Source: a virus. From it: a stretch of DNA of 64,000 bases. Of this stretch, positions 15,892 through 38,667 are shown in pieces. Location of the stretch: the IMG/VR virus record IMGVR_UViG_2917587430_000001, positions 25,228 to 89,227 of that record. One strand, written 5' to 3'. Each line of letters starts with the position of its first letter. Within the stretch, counting starts at the first letter, position 1. Made by a program: the position numbers and the translations under genes. The notes below the pieces were generated by a model, which was not told the origin of the DNA, made no database searches, and worked only from the letters and a program-made list of their open reading frames with translations.

Positions 15892-16917
15892 CTAAATCAA
15901 TCCAGCTAGCAGGTCAGTCATCTCCCCTTGAGCATTCTTGCGGTTGTCATCATACTTAAGCAGCGTGTCTAGGTTGGAATGTCGGCTCAACTTTTGCACC
16001 GATCTAACATTGCCATCGCTCTGGTCTAGGGCTGCTGTGATACCGCTGTGGCGGCACCGGTGCGGCGAGAAAATCTTCTTAATGCCTGCCTTCTCTGCAA
16101 ACTCATACCTGACCAAGTAATACAATCCATCGCCAGTTAACCGATGTCCAAAGTGGGCACGGTCAACGGCAATAAATAGCGGTGAGCGAGGTTCATAGGG
16201 GCTGCGTTCCTGACGTGCTTCTAGCCAGTCGGCGATCGCCTCAGAACCTAAACTGCTAATTGAAATCTTCTCTTTCTGAGTTCCCTTGCCCTTACCCAGA
16301 ATGGATAGACTGCGGGTGTCTGGGTCAAAGTCGCCCGTGTCAGCAGCGCAGATTTCATTGCGGCGCAGAACGTTGTCCCACAGCAGCCGAAGCAATGCAT
16401 AATCTCGCTTGCCTTTGAGGGTAGAGCGATCAGGAATTTCAAACAGACGCTTGAATGCATCAGACTCAATGCCTGTAGTATCTCGATAAGACGTGACCTT
16501 TTCAGATTGAACTTCTTCTAAGCTCCAACTGCATTTTCCAATCTTCTGAGCATACTTGACCAACGCTTTAACCGCTGAGATACGAGTATTCACAGTCGAT
16601 TCAGCTTTACCTTGCTCCATCAGATGGGCTTTGTACCCTAGAACAAGTTGAATGGCAGTGAATCGCTCAAGCTTCAGAAATTGCTCAATCAGTTGCGGTG
16701 AGGGTTCTTGGTTAGCAATGTGTTGAAAGAACATCGCCAGCCCCTTAGCGTAGGTGCGGCGAGTGTTAGGGCTGCGTTTATCCCTTAGCAATTCCTCCAT
16801 AATGTCTCGGTCAACAATCTGGATGAAGGGACTTGAAGCAGCAGTTTTAACTAAATTCGTTGCCACGTCAGGAGGCTCCATAAGTACTGGTAGTACTAAA
16901 GTTCCACCATGCCGCAA
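15892..16917 (-). CDS. Tyrosine recombinase (XerC-like, cyanobacterial plasmid/phage type)
   Basis: Catalytic R (LRRNE), K (LGKG), HxxR (HRCRH), H (SRH) and Y (LKYD). Confidence 0.92.
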   Translation of the reverse strand: MRHGGTLVLPVLMEPPDVATNLVKTAASSPFIQIVDRDIMEELLRDKRSPNTRRTYAKGLAMFFQHIANQEPSPQLIEQFLKLERFTAIQLVLGYKAHLMEQGKAESTVNTRISAVKALVKYAQKIGKCSWSLEEVQSEKVTSYRDTTGIESDAFKRLFEIPDRSTLKGKRDYALLRLLWDNVLRRNEICAADTGDFDPDTRSLSILGKGKGTQKEKISISSLGSEAIADWLEARQERSPYEPRSPLFIAVDRAHFGHRLTGDGLYYLVRYEFAEKAGIKKIFSPHRCRHSGITAALDQSDGNVRSVQKLSRHSNLDTLLKYDDNRKNAQGEMTDLLAGLI

Positions 16918-17044: not shown

Positions 17045-17316
17045 AAGCTTCCTGCTACGAGAAACATCGGAAGTTTCAATCCCAGTGGAAGACTTCGGAT
17101 GATTCAACAACTGAGACTGAGGTGTGCGATCGCTGTGTTAGGTCAAGGTTAAAGCCGCTAATCAAGCTTGAAACGGTGGCTGCTGTAAATGGCGATCGCC
17201 CAAAGCTGTTCAAAGGTTACTACAAGGCCTTTAGCCTGCCAAGCTCCTTAGAACTTTGCACTCAAACAGATAATTCTCAAATGCATACCTCTATGAACAG
17301 GTTGAGGCGGCACAAC
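17045..17316 (-). repeat. attI-platform repeat, copy A (5' part)
   Basis: Reverse complement aligns with 35248-35490 (GTTGTGCC.CCTCAACCTGTTCATAGAGGTATGCATTTGA...). Confidence 0.85.
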
Positions 17317-19396: not shown

Positions 19397-19735
19397 GTCG
19401 AACTATTAATTAGACGGAACGATTCTGCCGATCCACCCAGCTTCGGAGAATAGGCAGAATAATTCTGTATATCACTCCAAAACAGGTGGATCGACAGAAT
19501 GATTCTACATAATAGACTGATTTGGGTGGATCTGCAGAATCGTTCCAAATGGAATCAATTCAGTGGAATACAGACCACGAACGTAGGCAAACCTGAAAAC
19601 CTAAGTCTGGGTAAGGGGAGGTCTGGCAGGGTTAAAGCAACTGAACCGTCATTTGCCTGCAAGAAGCACTTGAAGCTTCAGTCTCAGTGGAAAACTTTAG
19701 ATGACTCGACAACTGAAATCAAGGTACGCGCTCGC
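19397..19735 (-). repeat. attI-platform repeat, copy B, with attI-like site at 19397-19415
   Basis: Near-identical to 33225-33552; ends GTCTAAT-TAATA-GTTCGAC. Confidence 0.85.
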
Positions 19736-24989: not shown

Positions 24990-25237
24990 TCTACCTCTTC
25001 AGCACGCTTAATTGCTCGCAAGCTTTTCAAGCCTTCGATTGCACCTGTTAAACCTTCAACTGTGTTTCTAATCACCTCTCCACCTTGAGCGCCTTGCGCT
25101 TCAGATTGCAAAACACTGATTAATTGCTTTTGCTGCTCAATTAGTTGAGAGATTGAGATTTCAGGAGTTGCCATCGAATTACCAAGGTAGACTAAGGACA
25201 ATTTAACTTGGAAAACTTGGATTAGGGGCGATCGCAT
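24986..25237 (-). CDS. Hypothetical coiled-coil protein
   Basis: Operon gene; start uncertain. Confidence 0.4.
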   Translation of the reverse strand: MRSPLIQVFQVKLSLVYLGNSMATPEISISQLIEQQKQLISVLQSEAQGAQGGEVIRNTVEGLTGAIEGLKSLRAIKRAEEVE

Positions 25238-27723: not shown

Positions 27724-29589
27724 TCACTCCGACTCCCAAAGTTCAAGCTGTATATGGTCTTCTGGCAGCCTCTTCAAGGATCTCCTTTTGGGACGGTCTA
27801 CCCCGGTTTTTGCTAACTGTGAGCTGACTACAGGTGTCACCAGTTCACTTGGGTCAGAGGTTGCAAGCACCCCCATACCTCCCCTTGCCTGCGTCTTCCC
27901 ACTCGTAGCGGGGTTTCGGTCAGTTCTAGGGGCAACAGAGTCAGCAACAACGGCTGATTCCTGCAAGTCCGAAGACTTGTACCCTTTGGCTGAATCCTCA
28001 GCAGGTTCACAGACGGCAGAACCGTCAGGCGTAGGCATACGCAAGCCTTGTCGAATTGCCGGGGCAAGTCGCAAGGTTCTGTTTTGGGCGGGCTTAATTG
28101 CGCCACACGCCCCGTAGAGGACAGAGCTAAGGAAGTTGCAACCTCCTACTCCATCCCGATCGCCCAACCACCCACAGCCACCTTTACGAGGATTGCAGTA
28201 GTAGACGCGGTTGCGTGGCTTGTGCCTGCGACCGCAGTTTGGGCAAACTTGTGACGACCGTGCTTCGCTGGCTGTCTCTGTTCCTTCGCCGCCAGCTAAC
28301 AGCAACTTCTCGTCTAAATATTTTACTTGGGTTGGCATTTCCCAAAGGTTGTTTCGACCAACTTGCTTGATCCGACGCTTGCCCTTCTTCCTGGTCTTTG
28401 GCAGTGTCTTCAAGTCACCTACATAAACCTTGCCAACTTTATTTTCAACGCACCAATTAACGGCTGCACGGGTGACGCAATGGTTAGCGTAGGTCAATCT
28501 GACCCGGTAATAATCAGCCGCTTTATGCTGAGAGCGAAGCAACCGCATTTCTCTGCGGCTCCGCTTCTTTAGTCCTAAGTCCTTACGCCGTTGCCGAATA
28601 ATCCGAAACGCATATTTGATATCAGATCCCCGGCGCTTCAACCCCTGACGCTGCCGTTCGTTGTCCCGCTCCTGCAATTCTCGATAGGTTGCTTTTTCGT
28701 CAGGCGATAGGTATTGACGGATTTGACCCTTTAAAACCCGCGATCGCTTGCGGTTGATGCCTCGATAACGCCCATCGCGTTCGCGCTTGAGGGCACAGAT
28801 ATTCTTGCCGCTGATAGTCGCTGTAGTGCCATCCTTCAGAGCCAACACCATTGCTCGTTTCTGCCCAAAGTCAACGGCTGCAACTTCAATTAGTTCAGGG
28901 TTTGGTTCAACTGGTAATTTACGGGTGATGTGCAGGCAGAACCGACCACTGCGAGAGCGAGTAATCTTTACATCACCATCAATCGAAATGTTTAGAAGCT
29001 CTGGTACGCGCAGCTTCAACACGTAGGGCTTTGCGCCTAGAATCAGGCGATCGCCCGAGCGTTTCACCAATTGATTTGTAAAAAACAGAGTGTGCAGACC
29101 TTTGTACCGCCTGGGAAGTTGAGCGTTTGTATCCCCGTTCTTTCGGTGGGTGAAATAGCTAGCAATATTCGCTTCAAAGTCCTGAGTTAATACCACTTTT
29201 GACTGAGCCGGAATTCCATAGTCAGGTTTGGCATTCTTCTCGGTAGCAACGACTAACCGCTCCTTCCCTTTATCCTTTCCCTGTTTAGCGGGTTTGTTGA
29301 CTAACTGCCGAGGGTAAATACTTGATTGCTGAGTGATTAGAGTAATAATCAACTCATCTGCCCAACCTTTACGCCGAATATCAACGTAAGGATCAACCTC
29401 CCAGGCAGGCTGATCCGGATACTCTTCTCTAGCTTGTTTATAGGCACTTTGCTTGTAAGCCAAATGATCGATCAGCAGGTTGTAGATCATCGCACTCGAT
29501 CGCATCATCCCGTACAGCAGTTGCCGCTGCTGTGGTTTAGGATGAAACTCGATTTTTAACGTGCGGGTTTGATAGTGCTGGCTGGTCAT
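27724..29589 (-). CDS. tnpB: TnpB-family RNA-guided nuclease (621 aa)
   Basis: AAVDFG (RuvC-I), YVGDL, SEARSSQVCPNCG...C...CGW zinc finger, DRD (RuvC-III). Confidence 0.85.
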   Translation of the reverse strand: MTSQHYQTRTLKIEFHPKPQQRQLLYGMMRSSAMIYNLLIDHLAYKQSAYKQAREEYPDQPAWEVDPYVDIRRKGWADELIITLITQQSSIYPRQLVNKPAKQGKDKGKERLVVATEKNAKPDYGIPAQSKVVLTQDFEANIASYFTHRKNGDTNAQLPRRYKGLHTLFFTNQLVKRSGDRLILGAKPYVLKLRVPELLNISIDGDVKITRSRSGRFCLHITRKLPVEPNPELIEVAAVDFGQKRAMVLALKDGTTATISGKNICALKRERDGRYRGINRKRSRVLKGQIRQYLSPDEKATYRELQERDNERQRQGLKRRGSDIKYAFRIIRQRRKDLGLKKRSRREMRLLRSQHKAADYYRVRLTYANHCVTRAAVNWCVENKVGKVYVGDLKTLPKTRKKGKRRIKQVGRNNLWEMPTQVKYLDEKLLLAGGEGTETASEARSSQVCPNCGRRHKPRNRVYYCNPRKGGCGWLGDRDGVGGCNFLSSVLYGACGAIKPAQNRTLRLAPAIRQGLRMPTPDGSAVCEPAEDSAKGYKSSDLQESAVVADSVAPRTDRNPATSGKTQARGGMGVLATSDPSELVTPVVSSQLAKTGVDRPKRRSLKRLPEDHIQLELWESE

Positions 29590-33155: not shown

Positions 33156-33552
33156 GCGATTGCCCTTTACAGCAGCCACCGTTTCAAACTCGATTAGCAA
33201 CTTCAACCTTGATTCAACACAGCGATCGCACACCTTGATTTCAGTTGTCGAGTCATCTAAAGCTTTCCACTGAAACTTCAAGTGCTTTTTGCAGACAAAT
33301 GATGGTTCAGTTGCTAACCCTGCCAGACCTCCCCTTACCCAGACTTAGGTTTTCAGGTTTGCCTACTTTCGTGGTCTGCATTCCACTGAGTTGATTCTAT
33401 TTGGAACGATTCTACAGATCCACCCAAATTAGTCTATTATGCAGAATAATTCTGTCGATCCACCTGTTTTGGAGTGATATACAGAATCATTCTGCCTATT
33501 CTCCGAAACTGGGTAGATAGGTAGAATCGTTCCGTCTAATCAATAGTTAGCT
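33156..33552 (+). repeat. attI-platform repeat, copy C, with attI-like site at 33534-33552
   Basis: Ends GTCTAAT-CAATA-GTTAGCT; begins at degenerate HIP1 GCGATTGC. Confidence 0.85.
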
Positions 33553-33635: not shown

Positions 33636-34469
33636 ATGTCCAAATGGTATGAAAAGCTGGTACAGGAAACCTATCAAGCCCTTCTCGATCAAGAATCACA
33701 CATCAAGAACATAGTTGTGCAGCACGATGTCAAGTTGACTGGCAAAAGTGGTGCTTCTCACCAGATTGATGTCTATTGGGAATTCAGGATAGCCGATACC
33801 ATCTATCGGACATGTATTGAGTGCAGGAATTATACATCAAACATCAAAAAAAGTAGAGTTGTAGAATTCAAAGGTATTTTAGACGATATAGGTAACGCGA
33901 ACGGAATTATTGTAACTAGGGTCGGTTTTCAAGAAGGGGCTTTAACCTATGCCGAACATCACGGGGTTCGACTACTTCTTATTAATCCCGTGCTGCAAAG
34001 AATAGACGTGAACGTGCATATGGTTATTCCCCAGATAAGTAACATAGGATTTTTGTTCGATTCTTCTCACGCAAAGTTCGTTTTAGAAGCAGCAGGAGTT
34101 GATACCACAAGTATCTTATTGGAGTTAAACGCTTTAGCTAAAGACATTTATCTGTATGATGCCAATGGAAATAAAACACGTAATTTGTCGACAGTGTTAT
34201 CACAGCCTATAGGTAAAGTTGGTCAAATTGTTGTCGATCTTGATAATGAATATCTGGAAACATCGCATGGATTGATAAAACTCAATTCAATTAGTTTTGA
34301 GCGACAGGAAGAGATGGTCGAGAATAAAATTACAATTGGTGGTGGTGAAGATGTTGCTAAGACATTAATCCAAGATGTTCTCGAAAATACATCCAAGTAT
34401 CTTTTCAAGGATGGTGCTGTAGGCAGCGAATCTCGAAGAGACAAATTGTTGCCGCAACAGAACAGATAA
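33636..34469 (+). CDS. Gene cassette: Mrr-cat-like PD-(D/E)xK restriction endonuclease
   Basis: YEKLV...HQIDV...IECRNY...VVEF...GIIVTRVGFQEGA. Confidence 0.85.
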   Translation: MSKWYEKLVQETYQALLDQESHIKNIVVQHDVKLTGKSGASHQIDVYWEFRIADTIYRTCIECRNYTSNIKKSRVVEFKGILDDIGNANGIIVTRVGFQEGALTYAEHHGVRLLLINPVLQRIDVNVHMVIPQISNIGFLFDSSHAKFVLEAAGVDTTSILLELNALAKDIYLYDANGNKTRNLSTVLSQPIGKVGQIVVDLDNEYLETSHGLIKLNSISFERQEEMVENKITIGGGEDVAKTLIQDVLENTSKYLFKDGAVGSESRRDKLLPQQNR

Positions 34470-35254
34470 TCGGGTCGCCGGAGGGTTTTCCCCTCCAGCT
34501 CCCACAGCACCCCGCATGCGGCTCCGCACGGGGCGCTTCCTCAAAGAGGTTTAGACGGTTTGGTTCCGAAGAACCAATGTCCAGGGCTGGTTACGCAATT
34601 AAGCGCCGACTATTTAGCTCCCCCATCCGGGTTCATCGCCACGTCGAGCTTTACGACTCCTCCCCGCTCTCTGAAGTTCGGCCCTTCACCGTGTCTCATC
34701 CATTACGATGAGCGTTTGGCTACTATGGCTTCTGCTGACTTCTGCTCAATTACACAGGGCGTTTCCATACCTGTGCGCTGTCTGCTTTTCCTTAGGGTTC
34801 TGTGGCTACCTAACCGTTTCCAGTTAGACCTCAATCAGACTCCCGTAGAAGCTTAGACCGCCATTTGAGCAGATCTCCCCGGATAAGAACGTGAACTGTC
34901 CCTGCACAACCGCGTCATTTACTGCGTTCCCTGAACCAGGGGGCTTCGTTGTGTTGTGCCAACTTGCCCTAGGACTATCTCAGCCTTCTATGACGTTTCT
35001 GTTCGTCGGCTCACAGGTTTGCCTCCAGCTTCCTTCAGACATTCCCTCGCGAGTTTGCCCTTGCTCTTGGCTAGTGGTTGTCGTTACTCGGCTCCAATAC
35101 TTTCGAGCATTTGAACGCTGGTTCCACCACAGAGGACTTTCACCTCATAAGTTCACGCCCATGCCGGGCGTACACAACCCGATTGGAGCGGGCTACCGAG
35201 AGATATTGGTGGTGATGAAAAGGTTTTAATAGCCGCTCAATCGGAACGTTGTGC
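34464..35254 (+). other. attC site interrupted by the intron
   Basis: Splicing out restores AGATAAC-AACCCGATTGGAGCGGGCTA...TAGCCGCTCAATCGGAAC-GTTGTGC. Confidence 0.85.
34469..35173 (-). mobile_element. ORF-less group IIC-attC intron (705 nt)
   Basis: 5' GTACGCCCGGCATGGGCGTG...GAGGTGAAAGTCCTC; domain V/VI GAAGCGCCCCGTGCGGAGCCGCATGCGGGGTGCTG...GACCCGAT; target TTGT/TA; no RT ORF. Confidence 0.85.
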
Positions 35255-35714
35255 CACCTCAACCTGTTCATAGAGGTATGCATTTGAAAATTATCTGTTT
35301 GAGTGCAAAGTTCTAAGGATCTTGGCAGGCTAAAGACGTGGTAGTAACCTTTGAACAGCTTTGGGCGATCGCCCTTTACGTTTCAAACTCAATTAGCAAC
35401 TTCAACCTTGATTCAACATAGCGATCGCACACCTTAATTTCAGTTGTCGAGTCATCCAAAGTTTTTCACTAAGACTGAAGCTTCAAGCGCTTCTTGCAGG
35501 TTCAGGTGCTTTAACCCTGCCAGACTTTCCCTTGCTCTTACCCAGTCCTAGGTTGTCAGGTTTGCCTACGTTCATGGTCTGCATTCCACTTAGTTGATTT
35601 CATTTGGAAGGATTCTGCCGATCCAGCTAGATCGTTTATTATTCAGAATCATTCTGTCGATCCACCTGTTTTGGAGTGATATACAGAATCGTTCCGTCTA
35701 ATCAATAGTTAGAC
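35248..35714 (+). repeat. attI-platform repeat, copy D (complete), with attI-like site at 35696-35714
   Basis: Runs from attC core GTTGTGC to GTCTAAT-CAATA-GTTAGAC. Confidence 0.85.
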
Positions 35715-36101
35715 CACTAGATTTCGGTTGAAGCGGTTCTTTAGAGATATCTGTGGGTGTATCTGACTTTTCTCTGACCTTTTGCTGACTTTGCACGGCT
35801 GCCAAAGTCAATTTGTGAAGGTTAGGGTAGATTCAATTTCAAGTGTTGTGCCAAATCATTCTGCCTGTCACCCTCTATGGGATCTTAGACGGAATAGTTC
35901 TATCTACATAATAGATAGAAGCCCATTACTAGAGGTGAAATTGCTAAGTAGCTTTAGGCTGATTTACTTCAAATCTTCCGGTTTCCAATCCATGAACAGA
36001 GGAAGTTCGGTTAAGTGTATCAGGTTACGTGCACAAAGCAAGGATCAATCGACATTCAAAGCAAGTTTTCCTACAGTCGTTCAACCAGCATAGAGAGCAT
36101 T

Positions 36102-38582: not shown

Positions 38583-38667
38583 CTCTAAATTCCAATGCAC
38601 CGGAACAAAGTCAAATGATCAGTGAGTTGCAGAAGTTGTCTGTGTCCGGTGATTGGAACCGTTAGCT
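38583..38667 (+). other. attC site
   Basis: CTCTAAA-TTCCAATGCACCGGAAC...GTCCGGTGATTGGAACC-GTTAGCT. Confidence 0.8.

Follow-up and report, generated by a model that had tools for sequence, protein, structure and literature searches.

Group IIC introns recognize a DNA hairpin located just upstream of their insertion point, together with a pairing of only 3-4 bp between the intron-binding site IBS1 and the exon-binding site EBS1 and with IBS3, while an IBS2-EBS2 pairing is absent (PMC7923331). The signature of those found in integrons, the IIC-attC introns, is insertion at TTGT/T (IBS1/IBS3) in the R'' box, on the bottom strand of attC and in the opposite orientation to the cassette (PMC7923331, PMC3001079). 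They include S.ma.I2 and Kl.pn.I3, the latter a group II intron in the attC site of the blaIMP-4 cassette (PMC5725488). Introns devoid of an open reading frame (ORF-less introns) have been called rare in bacteria, and a cyanobacterial case where the intron-encoded protein (IEP) acts in trans has been cited (PMC4424553). Here, we describe an ORF-less intron, very probably of the IIC-attC lineage, in a 64,000-nt stretch of the 113.6-kb IMG/VR virus record IMGVR_UViG_2917587430_000001 (positions 25,228 to 89,227), hereafter the window. The element occupies positions 34469-35173 on the minus strand and interrupts the attC site of a cassette encoding an Mrr-type restriction endonuclease. To our knowledge, all known group IIC-attC introns are retroelements that encode an IEP and come from integrons, mostly clinical ones, an earlier description of ORF-less forms being possible. 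The demonstrated cyanobacterial cases of IEPs acting in trans concern chloroplast-like IIB introns, which home into specific sequences.

A complete ORF-less intron in the attC site of a nuclease cassette

The minus strand of 34469-35173 matches three Rfam models of group II introns, all above their gathering scores (cmscan): RF02001 (D1-D4-3) at 34888-35056 with 128.8 bits (E 3e-26), RF01998 (D1-D4-1) in the region of domains II and III at 34681-34777 with 50.7 bits, and RF00029 (D5/D6) at 34469-34538 with 45.9 bits for a gathering score of 40. Read on this strand, the intron begins with GUACGCCC at position 35173 and ends with ACCCGAU at 34469. These two boundaries are common to all 48 complete members of the family that we collected. 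The termini are those of group II introns, since the 3' end is AU and the 5' end, GUACG, differs by one change from GUGYG; GUACG is found in 16 of 17 aligned copies and also in Kl.pn.I3. The family copies that we examined start with GTACGCCC...GGTGAAAGTCC, end with ACCCGAT, and each of them follows a hairpin at (T)TGT|T. The intron strand has no ORF of at least 70 aa, and no RVT_1 domain was found anywhere in the 113.6-kb record, which holds one copy of the element. Hence, positions 34469-35173 are a complete ORF-less group II intron of 705 nt (5' GUACG ... ACCCGAU 3'), with an intact ribozyme and no ORF for an IEP, as in non-autonomous introns. An earlier reading of the DNA made without database searches (the sequence-only reading) had described a 705-nt group II intron without reverse transcriptase (RT) and proposed the Rfam group II and D1-D4 models as a check; the model matches, the shared ends and the lack of RVT_1 bear this description out.

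The interrupted cassette starts at around 33547 (G|TTAGCTG) and carries, on the plus strand, a gene for an Mrr_cat-type restriction endonuclease of 277 aa (33636-34469; Pfam PF04471, E 1.3e-8). The left part of its R'' box (34464-34468, plus strand) overlaps the TAA stop codon of the gene and is separated by the intron from the remainder of the attC site (AGATA|AC). The latter, at 35174-35254 on the plus strand, comprises the last two bases of R'' (AC), then an imperfect inverted repeat (CCGATTGGAGCGGGCTA ... TAGCCGCTCAATCGG) and, at 35248-35254, the R' box GTTGTGC. Once the intron is removed, the plus strand thus reads AGATAAC, i.e., an R'' box containing the TAA stop, followed by the imperfect inverted repeat and GTTGTGC. 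The bottom strand of this site folds at -13.4 kcal/mol (z -2.2), with two extrahelical C on the 3' arm, as in canonical attC sites. The locus therefore has the R''-L''...L'-R' palindrome, the extrahelical bases on the bottom strand and the stop codon in R'' that define an attC site. Its architecture is comparable to that of the window sites at 38583 and 43646, and 14 other sites of the window share the YTAAC...GTTAG architecture, which is also common to cyanobacterial integrons. A near-identical type of attC, with the same intron at the same position, is present in a cyanobacterial genome (locus L218 of genome G467).

On the bottom strand, the junction reads GGGTTGT|TATCTG and is identical to the published consensus TTGT/T (PMC7923331). 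Two further features of a class IIC target are present: a hairpin ends right before GTTGT|, and an ACAA loop of the intron complements TTGT. The intron lies on the minus strand and the nuclease gene on the plus strand, the insertion being in the attC bottom strand with R'' split as AGATA|AC, as expected of IIC-attC introns. Homologues of the Mrr protein were found at 93%, 90% and 84% identity. Two of them, on metagenome contigs (L184 at 93% and L187 at 84%), have the same cassette start after GTTAGCTG and an empty attC site, but lie in other contexts, so the gene and its attC form a unit bounded by G|TT that occurs in different places, i.e., a cassette. These intron-less cassettes read ...AGCTAA|CAACCC..., with an uninterrupted AGCTAAC, which corresponds to the joined exons of the window. 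Because the empty homologous cassettes match the joined exons, the boundaries of the intron are fixed to the base. The empty site, the junction and the genuine attC agree with the insertion in the bottom strand at TTGT/TA that the sequence-only reading had proposed. Its claim that the TAA of the nuclease is formed either way also holds, since this codon is seen with the intron in the window and without it in the homologous cassettes, and its statement that IIC-attC introns target exactly this position fits the published TTGT/T consensus (PMC7923331). We could not find a related phage with an empty site: a scan of viral contigs for Mrr relatives gave no confirmed locus.

Ribozyme structure, relatives and spread of the ORF-less family

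To place the intron among known elements, we compared it with plasmids, phages and cyanobacterial genomes. The search of the PLSDB plasmids by blastn returned 400 records. In enterobacterial resistance plasmids, nt 1-519 of the query align at about 67% and nt 635-705 (D5-D6) at 84.5% identity; the alignment breaks off exactly where the plasmid ltrA gene starts, and the other strand carries blaIMP-4 immediately past the 3' end. The window intron therefore resembles Kl.pn.I3 and S.ma.I2, which are found in class 1 integrons, by the homology of the ribozyme and the matching 5' (GUACGCCC) and 3' (ACCCGAU) ends. It also resembles them by its location at TTGT|T on the bottom strand of an attC site, where it is antisense to the cassette gene and parts this gene from its attC (PMC3001079, PMC5725488, PMC7923331). 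In contrast to these elements, it lacks an IEP and has a D4 stub of about 110 nt in place of the 1.3-kb ORF, its host lineage is probably cyanobacterial, its replicon is phage-like, and the outward promoter P1out is not conserved. The GenBank phage collection yielded no more than three partial matches, all short (10-13% of the query).

A closer relative is the intron of Nodosilinea sp. LEGE 07088 (G001:C168, L162), which is 77% identical over nt 1-556, shares D5/D6, has an attC-like hairpin as target at ATTGT|, and contains a 5' region of D4 homologous to the window stub. Unlike the window intron, it is 1963 nt long with a 465-aa open frame for an IEP, itself 53% identical to the IEP of Kl.pn.I3 (E 2.5e-148). 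The Nodosilinea genome holds both this full-length intron and an ORF-less copy. Together with the grouping of the window ribozyme with the Kl.pn.I3 type, the identity between these two IEPs serves as a proxy for membership of the IIC-attC clade. Given its size of 705 nt, we also considered whether the intron belongs to the IIB/chloroplast-like class, which we rejected because the target is a hairpin, IBS1 is short and the intron is homologous to Kl.pn.I3.

We then computed a consensus structure with RNAalifold from 17 ORF-less copies of cyanobacteria and Gammaproteobacteria. The consensus has 117 pairs, of which 62 show compensatory changes, including pairs in D5, D6, the D1 helices and the stem of the D4 stub. 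The window copy keeps 110 of the 117 pairs, which is inside the range of recently multiplied copies and, with the matches to RF02001 and RF01998, indicates a conserved D1-D4 core. The sequence-only reading had named a failure to fold into domains I-VI as evidence that would contradict it; the kept pairs and the compensation across the family show that this is not the case. Domain I extends approximately from 34884 to 35173 (minus strand), contains the RF02001 core at 34888-35056, and its consensus pairs covary. Within it, the sequence ACAAC at 34953-34957 (minus strand) lies in an 8-nt hairpin loop that corresponds to an unpaired region of RF02001, and is complementary to the end of the 5' exon, GUUGU (IBS1 TTGT). 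Of the 16 ORF-less copies spanning this loop, 15 have the ACAA core, and a deletion has removed it from the remaining one. This loop is probably EBS1, to judge from its sequence and position; its pairing with IBS1 shows no covariation because IBS1 is nearly constant.

At the other end of the ribozyme, domain V (34504-34537, minus strand), delimited by the RF00029 alignment, has a short upper helix, a bulge of 2 nt and, where the catalytic triad is expected, the sequence CGC; its pairs at alignment columns 765-796 covary. IIC ribozymes, for instance that of the Oceanobacillus intron, typically have CGC in D5. Domain VI (34472-34503, minus strand) has a bulged A at 34475, 7 nt from the 3' end. 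Hence, the helix, the 2-nt bulge and the bulged A expected of domains V and VI are all present, and the pairs of both domains covary across the 17 copies. Between D5 and the upstream domains, alignment with the full-length intron of Nodosilinea and with other ORF-less copies delimits a domain IV stub at 34538-34674 (minus strand), whose stem shows compensatory changes. It contains GGGGAGGAG, which resembles a Shine-Dalgarno motif, a segment of about 80 nt with homology to the start of an IEP gene, a small hairpin, and about 25 nt preceding D5. The segment of 80 nt aligns with the initial codons of the IEP frame in the 1963-nt Nodosilinea intron, the start codon being lost. The stub may have been retained as the docking site of the IEP.

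The family of the intron has multiple copies in one order of cyanobacteria. Kovacikia minuta (G437) has nine ORF-less copies of 698 nt, with around 100% identity among themselves and 83% to the window copy; genome G467 has eight and Leptolyngbya PCC 6406 has three. In Kovacikia and G467, the copies occupy 17 distinct insertion sites, all of them in different attC bottom strands cut at GT|TRRRY. Thus, several near-identical ORF-less copies at different sites characterize the family, if not the record with its one copy. The sequence-only reading would have been weakened by a lone recent deletion, but ORF-less copies with the same stub are found nine times in Kovacikia and eight times in G467. 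Family matches occur in 33 of the 90 genomes of Leptolyngbyales, and full-length ORF-less matches in 11 of them, whereas ORF-less introns were said to be rare in bacteria (PMC4424553). In a phylum-wide sample of cyanobacteria, 7 of 401 genomes match. An integron integrase, IntI, is present in all four intron-bearing cyanobacterial genomes tested (437-472 bits, for a cut-off of 265), and in G467 it lies within 0.7-4 kb of intron copies. Finally, a contig from a biofilm metagenome is identical to window positions 34978-35177 (200 nt) and runs past TTGT into a different flank.

On a wider scale, a pattern scan of one genome per species revealed at least 120 loci of the family, mostly in Gammaproteobacteria, and among the matches listed there are many ORF-less forms of 600-755 nt in attC sites. 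In a tree of the ribozymes, ORF-less copies are intermingled with full-length ones, so that a minimum of six losses is required. This excludes a single origin of all ORF-less forms and implies that loss of the ORF is recurrent in this lineage; each loss retained a basal stem of D4. Within cyanobacteria, the ORF-less copies of the window, Kovacikia, PCC 6406 and Nodosilinea have one D4 stub in common, which suggests that they share one origin, a point on which the tree gives no resolution.

Some other copies have unusual arrangements or replicons. In Rhabdochromatium marinum (L089) and Allochromatium palmeri (L127), ORF-less introns of about 755 nt are apparently arranged as head-to-tail tandem copies, the 5' end of another copy directly adjoining the 3' side. 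The conjugative plasmid pPBPR1 of Photobacterium profundum has a 704-nt ORF-less copy in an attC-like site (72790-73493, L005/L010) and a second 3' fragment 1.5 kb away; its sister in the tree is a full-length intron from a Vibrio campbellii plasmid. Two further IMG/VR contigs, IMGVR_UViG_3300050195_000311 (L137) and IMGVR_UViG_2839589109_000002 (L138), carry introns of the same family, the first as a 526-nt mini form along with a second D5/D6. Phage-like records with introns of the IIC-attC type may thus not be unique.

Proposed mobility in trans, competing explanations and possible effects on the cassette

As a possible source of the missing protein, we searched the cyanobacterial genomes for RT-encoding relatives. 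The IEP of the Nodosilinea intron is uninterrupted. The sole cognate IEP genes of Kovacikia and G467 (70-76% identity) look broken: in Kovacikia (C1:2201130-2211001), some 8 kb separate the N-terminal part from a C-terminal part with a TGA in it, and in G467 (C2:1673018-1674898), the gene is found as two adjacent pieces in different frames. The IEP-bearing ribozymes of these two genomes are merely 82-83% identical to the resident ORF-less copies, which means that the ORF-less line is an independent lineage and not a fresh deletion of a resident copy. In genomes G483, G486 and G473, we found no close complete IEP, but only distant RTs at up to 36% identity and, in G473, a 72-aa fragment at 62%. 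The sequence-only reading had proposed a search of the host for near-identical copies and for an RT-encoding parent; in the cyanobacterial genomes, we found ORF-less copies near-identical to each other and, in the same lineages, IEP-bearing relatives. Its inference of a non-autonomous element mobilized in trans is supported for the family by the numerous copies and the IEP-bearing relatives, and may hold for the single copy of a record without RT. Like the ORF-less introns known to use an IEP in trans, those of this family have an intact ribozyme and multiple near-identical copies in a genome with an IEP-encoding relative. They differ from the demonstrated cyanobacterial cases in that the window intron is of the IIC type and its target is a DNA hairpin, the attC site.

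We consider it very likely that the element is an IEP-less intron of the group IIC-attC lineage that was reverse-spliced into the attC bottom strand and whose splicing and mobility rely on an RT/maturase encoded elsewhere. The intron would have entered the single-stranded bottom strand of the attC site of the Mrr nuclease cassette, guided by the folded attC hairpin, the EBS1-IBS1 pairing (ACAA/TTGT) and IBS3 (T). Its ribozyme is complete in D1-D3, D5 and D6, while D4 is reduced to the stem-loop at its base; full-length relatives have the ribosome-binding site of the IEP gene and its first codons inside this stem-loop. This stub would allow an RT/maturase encoded elsewhere to splice and mobilize the intron, and the mobility of the window copy probably depends on an IEP supplied in this way. 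The insertion most likely took place in a cyanobacterial host of the Leptolyngbyales type with an IEP-encoding relative and a true integron. The window copy would have entered the cassette in the host cell before being carried onto the phage-like element, where it would now be a single antisense passenger. Several observations weigh against this reading. The record holds one copy, no RT and no IntI, so the window copy may be inactive at present. In the very genomes with recent bursts of ORF-less copies, Kovacikia and G467, the cognate IEP genes appear to be disrupted. The closest relative of the window copy in a reference genome is just 90% identical, six consensus pairs are non-canonical in the window copy, and our scan of 34300-35900 revealed no sigma-70-like promoter in the intron on either strand. 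Furthermore, membership of the IIC-attC clade is formally set by the phylogeny of the IEP, which is inapplicable to an element devoid of it.

Part of these observations would also be expected if the intron were an inert fossil, i.e., a once-mobile ORF-less copy carried along with the cassette, with no splicing, movement or effect. The single copy in a record without RT and IntI, the six non-canonical pairs, the divergence of 10-17% from the nearest genomic copies and the lack of a promoter-like site on the intron strand are all compatible with such a relic. We nevertheless regard it as unlikely, if the most serious of the alternatives, since the hallmarks of the intron are intact (5' GUACG, the D5 helix and bulge, the bulged A of D6 and the EBS1 loop), the number of intact pairs is within the range of recently multiplied copies, and 200 identical nt are found in another flank in the biofilm metagenome contig. 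It is far less probable, and in our view barely credible, that the element is a general IIC intron located behind a terminator or some other palindrome rather than an attC-specific intron in a cassette. IIC introns do commonly insert after terminator hairpins (PMC4424553), a copy in PCC 6406 (L144) sits after a palindrome that is not an attC, and the record lacks IntI. However, the hairpin of the window has a 34-nt loop, no run of T, R'' and R' boxes, and extrahelical bases on the 3' arm of the bottom strand. The Mrr cassette with the same type of attC occurs intron-free in other contexts, the 17 sites of Kovacikia and G467 and most others examined are attC-like, some of them beside intI, and the ribozyme groups with Kl.pn.I3.

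The ORF-less form might also have been kept for a benefit to the array or the phage, either by freezing the defence cassette through the split of R'' or by insulating the head of the next array from read-through. The intron indeed leaves the gene and five of the seven R'' bases on one side and the remainder of the attC site on the other (AGATA|AC), does not alter the nuclease protein, and lies between the nuclease cassette and a repeated attI-like head; moreover, S.ma.I2 impedes read-through transcription from Pc (PMC3001079). Splitting R'' may impair the recombination of the cassette by IntI. Yet, the insertion splits R'' alone and leaves the hairpin of the bottom strand intact, including the 5-bp helix ACAAC/GTTGT that closes it, which makes the block of cassette excision inferred by the sequence-only reading uncertain. 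The published boxes of P1out (TTGCCA-17-TTTAAT) are not conserved in the window copy when inspected by eye, and insertions elsewhere are spread over many unrelated cassettes, as a selfish element would give. On balance, a benefit of this kind seems rather improbable. Concerning transcription, the single sigma-70 site in 34300-35900 (34301-34330, plus strand) is inside the nuclease gene, and one such site is no more than shuffled sequences give. Since the intron contains no sigma-70 site and P1out is not conserved, there is no evidence for an outward promoter. A metatranscriptome contig is identical to 35011-35177, which cannot show transcription. No sequencing run contained more than 0.15 of the sampled words, and the contigs cover the intron only, with neither the Mrr-intron nor the intron-platform junction.

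If the preferred reading of a trans-mobilized intron is extended to the family, the ORF-less IIC-attC introns could be long-lived integron parasites akin to miniature inverted-repeat transposable elements (MITEs). Reduced to a ribozyme and a D4 docking stem, they would outnumber and outlast their IEP partners, would have arisen at least six times and would move between cyanobacteria on phage-borne arrays. We propose this tentatively, at slightly less than even confidence. Like MITEs, they are short derivatives with only the cis-acting parts, which outnumber the autonomous partner and persist where it is broken; unlike them, they are RNA-mediated retroelements with a catalytic ribozyme of their own and not DNA transposons. 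If this is true, a IIC reverse transcriptase can efficiently mobilize ribozymes in trans into DNA hairpins. Within one order of cyanobacteria, the ORF-less form makes up a family with many copies; Gammaproteobacteria show parallel losses, and one copy is on a phage-like element, a possible route for the spread of introns between hosts. Since the ORF-less form is a minimal IIC ribozyme that occurs in nature and has a defined D4 stub, it is suited to testing trans-mobilization into DNA hairpins, and it may mark how cassette arrays become fixed. The basic picture of integrons and of group II introns is unchanged: what is notable is how large and widespread the ORF-less family is and that a phage-like replicon carries one of its members, the element being otherwise a IIC-attC intron minus its IEP.

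Integrase, repeats and neighbouring genes of the record

We found no match to TIGR02249, the model of integron integrases, in the record. Its sole tyrosine recombinase (15892-16917, minus strand) is Xer-like, with 104.9 bits for XerC and 22.9 bits for IntI, the latter for a cut-off of 265. This gene adjoins, at 17290-17316, an inverted copy of a sequence of about 29 nt (GTTGTGCC.CCTCAACCTGTTCATAGA) that also follows the attC site of the Mrr cassette (35248-35276). A recombinase beside a cassette array recalls the layout of integrons, even if NCBIfam does not classify this enzyme as an IntI. Arrays of three to four palindromic sites of the AGAATnnTTCT type, spaced by exactly 40 bp and ending with GTCTAATCAATAGTTAG, are located at 19405-19546 (inverted), 33392-33541 and 35634-35703. 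These arrays belong to a repeat of about 350 bp with 85-92% identity, present on either side of the Mrr cassette (33180-33540 and 35379-35720). Finally, the minus strand at 27724-29589 encodes a 621-aa protein with matches to a Cas12f1-like TNB domain and to HTH_OrfB_IS605, located beside a truncated DUF932 gene.

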